NCBI GenBank assembly: GCA_041556555.1
Contig: JBFFIE010000002.1
Span: 40,505-104,504, forward strand
Direction: 5' to 3'
Source of the DNA: Gammaproteobacteria bacterium
Lineage (GTDB): Bacteria > Pseudomonadota > Gammaproteobacteria > Eutrophobiales > Eutrophobiaceae
Length of the DNA: 64,000 nt
Shown: positions 34,759 through 36,306 of the stretch, one piece after another
How positions within the stretch are numbered: the stretch's first letter is position 1
How the letters are laid out: every line of letters starts with the position of its first letter
The notes under the pieces: model-generated
Told to the model about the DNA's origin: nothing
Seen by the model: only the letters and a program-made list of their open reading frames with translations
Databases searched by the model: none
Position numbers and translations under genes: made by a program

Positions 34759-35697
34759 TTATTGGGCCAGCCTGACGGCAATCAACCATACTGCAGGAAT
34801 CCCGGTAAGAAAAAAACCGGCAATTGCAAGACGTGAGTACAGGGTCATTTTTTTGACCAATCTTGATTCGGCAAAAGCAGACAGGAGAAATGGGCGACGA
34901 CTGTCGCTGGTTTTGCCCAGAAAATGGACAGTGGGCGATCGGCGCAGCTCGTCATGATAGGCCAGCACCTCTTGCAGGGCCTTTTCTCTTACCGTTTCCC
35001 ATTCTTTCATGTCCAGTTCACCATCCTGATTTTTGTCATGAACAGCCAGTAAATGATCACTTCTCATCTTCCACTCGGAGATTAATTCCCTGACATCACG
35101 GTTAATATTGAACTCGGCGCGGTCACCGCCCCTGGTAATGAACATACCGATCGCATAGATCGGATCGCCTGGTTGCATGCGTTCCTCCGTATAGCGATAG
35201 CGCTTCAGTCCAAGGCTTAGCCAGGCACGTTTTTTTTCTCCCTGGTAACGTACCGGGAACCGGGTCGAGCCGCGCCAAACGTCCTTGATAGAGGCGGTGA
35301 CCTCGGCACCCTCGGGGTCAATAATAGCTTGCCCGGTATCGTCCTTTACAAGAAACAACTCTTCACTCTTGCTTTGCTCAACAACAGACCAGTGTGAACG
35401 TTTACCCGAGCGGCGGTAACGTTCAATCTTGTAACTGAACCAGGTGCAGATCTTTCCGGTTAATGGCCCCTTGATTGGTTTGCCATCTATCAGTTCACAA
35501 TGCCCCGCCAGCTCGGTATAGCCTTGTGCAGCCGATCGGATTTTGGAAGTCGGGGTGTCTTCTATAATGCGGGCACGTACAAGATAATAAAATGCAGCAA
35601 AGAAGCAGAAGAGGCCGAAGCCGCCCAGGTAAATAATGGTCTCCCAGAAATCGCCTGCTGGCGTATGGATGGCCCAGGCGGTAGCGTTCTCCAGCAT
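34759..35697 (-). CDS. LemA-associated membrane protein, GIDE-like topology, with EF-hand-type Ca-binding loop
   Basis: 312 aa. TM near the N-terminus (IIYLGGFGLFCFFAAFYYL) and at the C-terminus (LAIAGFFLTGIPAVWLIAV). Central soluble domain, with DKNQDGELDMKE matching the EF-hand loop consensus. Lies immediately downstream of lemA. Confidence 0.5.
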   Translation of the reverse strand: MLENATAWAIHTPAGDFWETIIYLGGFGLFCFFAAFYYLVRARIIEDTPTSKIRSAAQGYTELAGHCELIDGKPIKGPLTGKICTWFSYKIERYRRSGKRSHWSVVEQSKSEELFLVKDDTGQAIIDPEGAEVTASIKDVWRGSTRFPVRYQGEKKRAWLSLGLKRYRYTEERMQPGDPIYAIGMFITRGGDRAEFNINRDVRELISEWKMRSDHLLAVHDKNQDGELDMKEWETVREKALQEVLAYHDELRRSPTVHFLGKTSDSRRPFLLSAFAESRLVKKMTLYSRLAIAGFFLTGIPAVWLIAVRLAQ

Positions 35698-35733
35698 GTT
35701 GAATATTCAGGCGGTTATTATTACCCCGGATGC

Positions 35734-36306
35734 CTAACTGAACAGTGCCGTGACATCAACATCTGCCGTTTCCTCTTCACTGAATACCAGCAATTGCTTG
35801 GGACCAAAGGCAAACATGCGGGCAATGATTACATCCGGGAATTGCTCAATACGGATGTTATTGACATTGACACTTTCATTGTAAAACTCGCGCCGATCCG
35901 CGATGGAGTTTTCCAGTTCGGAGATACGGCCCTGAAGGTGCTTGAAGGTGTCATTGGCCTTGAGATCGGGATAGGCCTCGGCCAGGGCGAAGAGTTTTCC
36001 CAGTCCCAGGCGTAGCTGGGTTTCTGCCGGACCCAGAGCACCAATGTCTTCCTGCTCACGGGCATTGGAAACAGCAGCGCGTGCCTCCATGACCTGCTGC
36101 AGGGTTTCTTGTTCATAACCCATGTATTGCTTGCAGGTCTCAACCAGTTTTGGCAATTCATCGTGACGTTGCTTGAGCAGGACATCAATATTGGACCAGG
36201 CCCTGGACACATTATGTTTAAGTGCCACCAGGTTGTTGTAAATAACGATGGCATAAACAATAGTGGCAATGATTAATCCCAACAGGACGATACTGAAAAT
36301 ATCCAC
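35734..36306 (-). CDS. lemA: LemA family protein
   Basis: GTG start preceded by GGGAGA. N-terminal TM then LemA core (NNLVALKHNVSRAWSNIDVLLKQRHDELPKLV...). The ORF-track start at 36453 is probably read-through. Confidence 0.8.
   Translation of the reverse strand: MDIFSIVLLGLIIATIVYAIVIYNNLVALKHNVSRAWSNIDVLLKQRHDELPKLVETCKQYMGYEQETLQQVMEARAAVSNAREQEDIGALGPAETQLRLGLGKLFALAEAYPDLKANDTFKHLQGRISELENSIADRREFYNESVNVNNIRIEQFPDVIIARMFAFGPKQLLVFSEEETADVDVTALFS

Follow-up and report, generated by a model that had tools for sequence, protein, structure and literature searches.

The window, the whole 64-kb stretch of DNA analysed here, carries on its minus strand the gene for a LemA protein directly upstream of the gene for a GIDE/BAM-family membrane protein that contains a canonical EF-hand loop. 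On balance, we favour the view that the two form a conserved two-gene inner-membrane module which is calcium-switched through the predicted EF-hand. The adjacency of the two genes is conserved, and the pair is the invariant core of the locus: lemA was found on the same strand and directly upstream of the GIDE gene in 79 of the 79 related loci with room for it, and the pairing, first pointed out in a preliminary description of this DNA, is also kept in Nitrincola. The use of calcium as an intracellular signal by bacteria is poorly understood, and the LemA-GIDE/EF-hand family offers a clean test case, combining a small two-gene module, a presence in the genomes of at least 594 species and an EF-hand of textbook form on which selection is strong; in one lineage there are naturally 'ligand-dead' variants, which could act as controls.

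The lemA-GIDE gene pair and its surroundings

The pair, the gene that follows it and the candidate expression signals of lemA are located as follows:

36363..36390, minus strand: sigma-70-like promoter match upstream of lemA (TTAACC, 16 nt, TAGAAT, extended TG; a consensus match only)
36314..36319, minus strand: Shine-Dalgarno-like GGGAGA, 7 nt 5' of the lemA GTG (direct reading of the sequence)
35734..36306, minus strand: lemA CDS (190 aa, GTG start; N-terminal TM helix and LemA helical domain)
34759..35697, minus strand: GIDE/BAM-family membrane protein (312 aa; Pfam GIDE match)
32665..34713, minus strand: prlC/opdA-like oligopeptidase A (M3 peptidase; Peptidase_M3 at 510 bits, plus TOP_N)

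The 190-aa lemA product matched the Pfam LemA model (PF04011) at 153.3 bits (E=5e-45), above the curated cut-off of 26.2, and covered profile positions 1-147 of 149. The mechanically derived open reading frame is longer (35734..36453, 239 aa), and in the preliminary description the start had been moved to a GTG with a GGGAGA ribosome-binding site. Read directly from the sequence, this GTG occupies 36304-36306. It is almost certainly the real start, since the LemA orthologues of related genomes have their MD[IV].. start exactly at the GTG position and public gene calls give lemA as 190 aa in two of the three contigs with an identical downstream protein. From there the protein begins VDIFS and continues into a hydrophobic stretch, giving a single TM with a very short N tail, and the same was seen in 61 orthologues. 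Four sigma-70-like sites were found near lemA with 2.3 expected, which makes them weak evidence for a promoter. With the MamQ equivalog model (NCBIfam NF040966) the lemA product reached 78.6 bits, short of the cut-off of 250, and it was rejected as a MamQ equivalog. No RNA element was detected with Rfam near the lemA-GIDE pair.

The GIDE gene starts 36 nt past the lemA stop on the same strand. Its product had been described as a GIDE-type protein with TM helices at both ends and a soluble centre, and both the assignment and the topology hold. The Pfam GIDE model (PF12483) aligned to residues 95-192 at 41.5 bits, above its curated cut-off of 23.6, and the hydropathy peaks at residues ~17-45 and ~288-312 coincide with AlphaFold helices 14-47 and 277-311. 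Because only profile positions 11-110 of 160 are aligned, the helical arm with the EF-hand lies outside the matched part of the Pfam model. An AlphaFold2 model of the 312-aa protein, built on 50 homologues, is confident (mean pLDDT 89.5). Its elements run in the order helix 14-47, strands within 59-189, helices 198-211 and 213-220, an unstructured segment 221-229, helix 230-253, two short strands that rejoin the sheet and, finally, helix 277-311. The predicted membrane and core segments are:

35572..35640, minus strand: TM helix 1 (about residues 20-42; hydropathy windows 17-45, AlphaFold helix 14-47)
35131..35523, minus strand: GIDE beta-rich core (residues 59-189; OB-fold-like barrel, disordered loop 155-162)
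34768..34836, minus strand: TM helix 2 (about residues 288-310; hydropathy windows 288-312, AlphaFold helix 277-311)

In the model, the beta core looks like an OB-fold barrel. A family-profile search of PDB sequences returned no solved relatives of the GIDE domain, and a Foldseek comparison of the full-length model with PDB structures found no match at E<0.001. The NCBIfam scan had no model for the GIDE protein, and the PADLOC defence models matched neither LemA nor the GIDE protein at E<=0.1, so these two collections provide no functional anchor for the GIDE protein.

On the same strand, prlC starts 45 nt past the GIDE gene, and no terminator-like site was found on the minus strand of this 45-nt gap; for this reason prlC may be co-transcribed with the lemA-GIDE pair. 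It was rejected as an obligatory third member, being present downstream of the GIDE gene in only 51 of 80 related loci and replaced by another gene in Nitrincola. The same downstream regions contained an unannotated 247-aa ORF (34/80) and an Exo_endo_phos nuclease (43/80). The pair had also been placed directly upstream of an iron locus, a statement that stands in part: bfr/bfd do adjoin the pair, but they are transcribed away from lemA on the other strand, and the same-strand follower is prlC. Because bfr is on the opposite strand and is present in 27 of the 80 related loci, the adjacency to the iron locus is best read as lineage synteny, and on the same evidence the pair was rejected as a functional part of that locus.

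Membrane orientation of the two proteins

The positive-inside rule is an established principle of membrane topology. Averaged over 50 GIDE homologues, the number of K+R was 0.96 in the N tail and 1.0 in the C tail, versus 4.7 in the 16 residues after TM1 and 4.68 in the 22 residues before TM2; the N tail had 3.2 D+E in the same homologues. The 61 LemA orthologues had 0 K+R in the N tail and a mean of 2.1 in the 15 residues after the TM. From this K+R bias and the positive-inside rule alone, we predict that the soluble domains of the GIDE protein and of LemA probably face the cytoplasm. A scan of the longer homologues (P0145, P0205, P0265 and others) turned up no additional domain by which the topology might be fixed.

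Published orientations for LemA and GIDE proteins are inconsistent. A 2014 paper placed the C-terminal domain of LemA/MamQ outside the cytoplasm (PMC3905215), the human GIDE/BAM domain is located in the intermembrane space (PMC4457424), and in a 2026 preprint a LemA-like domain was modelled on the cytoplasmic side of the membrane, where it would serve as a scaffold (10.64898/2026.07.15.738315). If the orientation were opposite to the one predicted here, both domains would be periplasmic, and the EF-hand would be a structural or environmental calcium site stabilising an envelope protein instead of a cytoplasmic sensor. We consider this arrangement rather unlikely, given that the 50 GIDE and 61 LemA sequences show a strong, consistent charge bias (about 0-1 K+R in the tails, about 4.7 on the GIDE inner flanks), that LemA, unlike an N-in signal anchor, has no positive N-region before its TM, and that the preprint model also points to the cytoplasmic face.

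The EF-hand loop and its conservation

The loop and its predicted structural context were mapped to the following positions:

35002..35037, minus strand: 12-residue EF-hand loop DKNQDGELDMKE (residues 221-232 of the GIDE protein; unique pattern match in the window)
34939..35061, minus strand: predicted EF-hand helix-loop-helix (residues 213-253; entering helix 213-220, loop 221-232, exiting helix 230-253; AlphaFold)

The loop DKNQDGELDMKE had been reported as a 12/12 match to the strict EF-hand loop pattern D-x-[DN]-x-[DN]-G-x-[ILV]-[DSTN]-x-x-E, and this is what the sequence gives, with ligands at positions 1, 3, 5, 9 and 12, Gly at position 6 and a hydrophobic residue at position 8. Extended by W233, it also fits the 13-residue pattern that we take to be the PROSITE-type EF-hand pattern. 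In a six-frame search of the whole 64-kb window it was the only match to either pattern, and the strict pattern arose in 4 of 200,000 shuffles of the GIDE protein (a frequency of 2e-5). With Pfam, the EF-hand_5 model scored 14.3 bits on residues 221-236, below the cut-off of 25.9; the best Pfam EF-hand models for five EF-loop-bearing relatives reached 16.0-25.3 bits and were likewise below cut-off.

In the AlphaFold model the loop is flanked by helices (helix 213-220, loop 221-229, helix 230-253; pLDDT about 88-92), the context that a structure prediction was proposed to check, and the last three loop residues begin the exiting helix, as they do in true EF-hands. The family profile, searched against all PDB sequences, matched EF-hand proteins only, i.e. 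troponin C (site IV), aequorin, polcalcin, MICU1, hippocalcin and lanmodulin. These alignments cover query residues ~215-240, taking in the loop and the helices on both sides of it. A second EF-hand was not found, there being no other loop match in the GIDE protein and no partner loop in the AlphaFold model.

Conservation of the loop in orthologues, the other check that had been proposed, was assessed in four sets of sequences. The strict EF pattern was present in 94 of the 120 closest homologues, in 69 of 80 genome loci (77 with a relaxed pattern), in 132 of 150 cluster representatives at 34-46% identity (12 more with the relaxed pattern) and in 96 of 115 members of a set seeded from a divergent member. 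Among the 150 representatives, the counts by position were D1 146, N/D3 148, D/N5 144, G6 145, I/L/V8 147, D9 132 and E12 145, so positions 1, 3, 5, 6, 8, 9 and 12 are kept at 88-97%. Positions 2, 4, 7, 10 and 11 are variable, the commonest residue at each being found in at most 46 of the 150. We read this as purifying selection that is strong precisely at the calcium ligands, i.e. the footprint of a calcium site that is in use, and the EF-hand loop of the GIDE protein is, judging from its sequence, likely to bind Ca2+.

The ligands have been lost in part of the family. In the 16 sequences nearest to homologue P0239 they are replaced by F[GA]xPGAxx[FL]S..EW, with the loop length unchanged; four of the 16 have a named source, which is Nitrincola in each case. 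This Nitrincola-like clade keeps the conserved residues of the flanking helices, and in one Nitrincola genome LemA (190 aa) is still encoded 10 nt upstream of the EF-less GIDE gene. Species names within Nitrincola point to alkaline lakes, and such waters are poor in free calcium, a habitat link that may bear on the loss. The GIDE loop of Ectothiorhodospira magna is degenerate as well (NIDLQGHIDMAA). Since the Nitrincola-like clade and E. magna lack the ligands yet retain the gene and LemA, calcium would not be essential to the core function, and the overall pattern suggests that the calcium site is an ancestral but dispensable regulatory add-on and not part of the core fold.

The swap of ligands in the Nitrincola-like clade, with loop length, helix residues and LemA retained, and the presence of one EF-hand per chain are also what would be expected if the helix-loop-helix were mainly a structural arm, any calcium being bound constitutively without conveying a signal and the activity coming from the OB barrel and LemA alone. 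Elsewhere in the family, however, the ligand positions are tightly constrained and their neighbours drift, which is the behaviour of a used metal site and not of a linker, and we therefore regard a mainly structural arm as quite improbable. A chance motif in an ordinary membrane protein, for which the sub-cut-off Pfam EF-hand score might be quoted, has next to no probability, because the loop is unique in the window, arises so rarely in shuffles, sits in a modelled helix-loop-helix with profile matches to troponin C, aequorin, MICU1 and others, and has its ligands conserved in hundreds of relatives; the conservation data refute it.

Proposed mechanism and relation to known families

In the calcium-switched module that we favour, LemA would cross the membrane once, its N-terminus lying outside and its helical-bundle domain inside. 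The GIDE partner would be held by a TM anchor at each end and would expose to the cytoplasm an OB-fold-like barrel followed by one canonical EF-hand. EF-hands normally act in pairs. Given this habit and the single EF-hand per chain, calcium control of dimerisation or of arm packing appears most likely: Ca2+ on the EF-hand would either bring about homodimerisation via EF-hand pairing or cause the helical arm to dock onto the OB barrel. The calcium state would then switch the proposed LemA-GIDE complex at the membrane surface. If the protein indeed faces the cytoplasm and binds Ca2+, it would join a short list of cytoplasmic calcium sensors with a membrane anchor that have been proposed for bacteria, and the pair would provide a first mechanistic handle on the enigmatic LemA and GIDE/BAM families.

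For the output of the module we can offer a tentative guess, namely a role in membrane homeostasis or stress, such as scaffolding or remodelling. Oligopeptidase A, for which the neighbouring gene prlC codes, degrades cleaved signal peptides in E. coli. The guess draws on this neighbour and on two further hints: LemA-type proteins have been discussed as membrane scaffolds or remodelling factors (10.64898/2026.07.15.738315; PMC3905215), and lemA is induced in a Flavobacterium sppA (signal-peptide peptidase) mutant, a weak link to stress (PMC13236525). More specifically, the LemA-GIDE/EF-hand pair might be a cytoplasm-facing sensor of calcium entry after a membrane breach or channel opening, which we hold to be a long shot. 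Ca2+ on the lone EF-hand would in that case make the OB-fold protein dimerise and set off LemA-mediated membrane remodelling or repair. Were this correct, the pair would be a bacterial counterpart of eukaryotic calcium-triggered membrane repair and a widespread, genetically tractable signalling module.

A working analogy for a lone EF-hand switch is found in STIM1. Its EF-SAM region has a canonical EF-hand near a membrane anchor, and calcium occupancy controls oligomerisation. Homology to the GIDE protein is limited to the EF-hand, and the EF-hand of STIM1 pairs with a hidden non-canonical one and with a SAM domain, whereas the GIDE model has no such partner. With troponin C, calmodulin and polcalcin the GIDE loop shares the canonical ligands, Gly at position 6, the hydrophobic residue at 8, the bidentate Glu at 12 and the flanking helices. 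It differs from these canonical sensors in that there is one EF-hand per chain and not a pair, in that it resides in a membrane protein beside a putatively OB-fold-like core, and in its sub-cut-off Pfam scores. Among bacterial EF-hand proteins, EfhP of Pseudomonas aeruginosa binds Ca2+ specifically and mediates responses (PMC9132961).

A eukaryotic relative is human MUL1/MAPL/GIDE, an E3 ligase of the mitochondrial outer membrane in which two TM helices enclose a homologous BAM/GIDE domain (PMC4457424). MUL1 carries a C-terminal cytosolic RING with ligase activity and has its BAM domain in the intermembrane space, whereas in the bacterial GIDE protein there is no RING, the chain ends at TM2, an EF-hand is present and the predicted orientation is cytoplasmic. 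Database entries name bacterial GIDE proteins 'E3 ubiquitin ligase' or 'RING-type E3 ubiquitin transferase', for which the inherited family name is the sole basis. Such an identity was rejected and is hardly credible: Pfam finds GIDE and a weak EF-hand but no RING or other ligase domain, the chain stops after TM2 with a tail of 2-5 residues, and no prokaryotic BAM/GIDE protein has a RING according to a paper on MAPL evolution, which also leaves the function of the BAM domain open (PMC4457424). These names are thus misleading, inherited errors of annotation. Bacterial GIDE/BAM proteins (PF12483), annotated as 'GIDE domain-containing protein', share with the protein of the window the order TM, beta-rich domain, TM, and the lack of a RING. 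Hundreds of close bacterial relatives are of equal length and architecture, EF-hand included, and the window copy is not distinguishable from them.

On the LemA side, the LemA of the window shares the N-terminal TM and the helical domain with its family, which includes the magnetosome protein MamQ. It differs in scoring below the MamQ equivalog cut-off, in having no magnetosome genes nearby and in being partnered by a GIDE/EF-hand protein.

The preliminary description had stated that calcium sensing in a LemA/GIDE module was uncharacterised, and within the literature searched we likewise found no paper that joins EF-hand, bacterial and GIDE. Nor did this literature offer any work on the function or biochemistry of the bacterial GIDE proteins and their EF-hand; its one relevant item was the paper on MAPL evolution (PMC4457424), and in one E. 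coli paper PF12483 served as a search model for ligase mimics only. The architecture itself is already present in automated annotation: precomputed Pfam lists give PF12483 and PF13202 for many homologues, and some carry the JGI label 'E3 ubiquitin ligase/EF hand domain-containing protein'.

The pair in the window is a typical member of a large family. A 90%-clustered collection contained 1,359 homologues of the GIDE protein, and at 50% identity there were 3,934 clusters with E<=0.001 and 424 with E<=1e-30. The host genomes represent at least 594 species, mostly uncultured Gammaproteobacteria. Named carriers include Ectothiorhodospira, Methylocaldum, Solimonas, Motiliproteus, Nitrosomonas, Methyloversatilis, Marinobacterium and Nitrincola.

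Gene order around the lemA-GIDE pair

The lemA gene and the gene for the GIDE/EF protein (312 aa, with a single EF-hand loop) head a series of genes transcribed in the same direction, and a second locus lies divergent from lemA:

31122..36306, minus strand: lemA, GIDE/EF gene, prlC (oligopeptidase A), 247-aa ORF and Exo_endo_phos nuclease gene
31925..32668, minus strand: the 247-aa ORF
29262..30722, minus strand: Peptidase_M48 protein, 486 aa
36469..41140, plus strand: iron-type locus, divergent from lemA

The order from lemA to the nuclease gene is common to many related genomes; among the 80 related loci, prlC was found in 51, the nuclease gene in 43 and the 247-aa ORF in 34. 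The gap between the GIDE/EF gene and prlC is 45 nt and a search of it for a terminator-like site found none, therefore the two genes may be co-transcribed. The start of the 247-aa ORF and the stop of prlC overlap by 4 nt. A Pfam search with this ORF gave no match at E<=1e-5, and the sole domain match recorded for an identical protein is a faint SH3_3; the ORF is conserved in related loci at 25-40% identity. The Peptidase_M48 gene follows on the same strand, four genes downstream of the pair.

The preliminary description had placed the pair beside an iron storage and uptake locus, and this is borne out by the gene content: a bacterioferritin (Ferritin), a Bfd-like [2Fe-2S] protein, a Porin_O_P-type porin, an FMN_bind protein, a PepSY_TM protein and a periplasmic solute-binding protein. 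In the related loci bfr is present in 27 of 80, the porin gene in 18 and bfd in 4.

Loss of EF-hand ligands in relatives

In the related GIDE proteins P0239 and P0271-P0285 (represented also at locus L081, 5001-5921), a sublineage termed Nitrincola-like after the members carrying that source name, every EF-hand ligand residue has been replaced, giving F[GA]xPGAxx[FL]S..EW. Despite this loss, the loop length is unchanged, the flanking helices are retained and the LemA partner is kept. The loop of Ectothiorhodospira magna (locus L058), NIDLQGHIDMAA, is separately degenerate. Species names in the genus Nitrincola refer to alkaline lakes, which hints that ligand loss may track calcium-poor habitats.

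Membrane side of LemA and E3 ligase names

Sources disagree on the membrane side of the LemA domain, which is extracytoplasmic according to PMC3905215, whereas in the model of a 2026 preprint (10.64898/2026.07.15.738315) a LemA-like domain sits at the membrane's cytoplasmic side. For the clade of the window's LemA, charge counts favour a predicted cytoplasmic placement.

Several bacterial GIDE homologues (e.g. P0300, P0302, P0306 and P0315) carry the UniRef/JGI names 'RING-type E3 ubiquitin transferase' or 'E3 ubiquitin ligase'. We rejected this identity since a Pfam search found no RING domain in the window GIDE protein, its chain ends with the C-terminal TM helix, and, according to PMC4457424, no prokaryotic BAM (GIDE domain) protein has a RING; the names are propagated misannotation.

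RNA genes and nearest records

Rfam at gathering score, applied to the whole window, matched two tRNA genes and nothing else:

24037..24110, plus strand: tRNA gene
54941..55013, plus strand: tRNA gene

Among genome records, the nearest is that of a Gammaproteobacteria MAG (isolate CS3-C001; locus L001, WVYN01000080.1), with a 95% identical GIDE protein and the same gene order. Public metagenomes contain the exact 312-aa GIDE protein on 7 contigs, L082-L084 among them.
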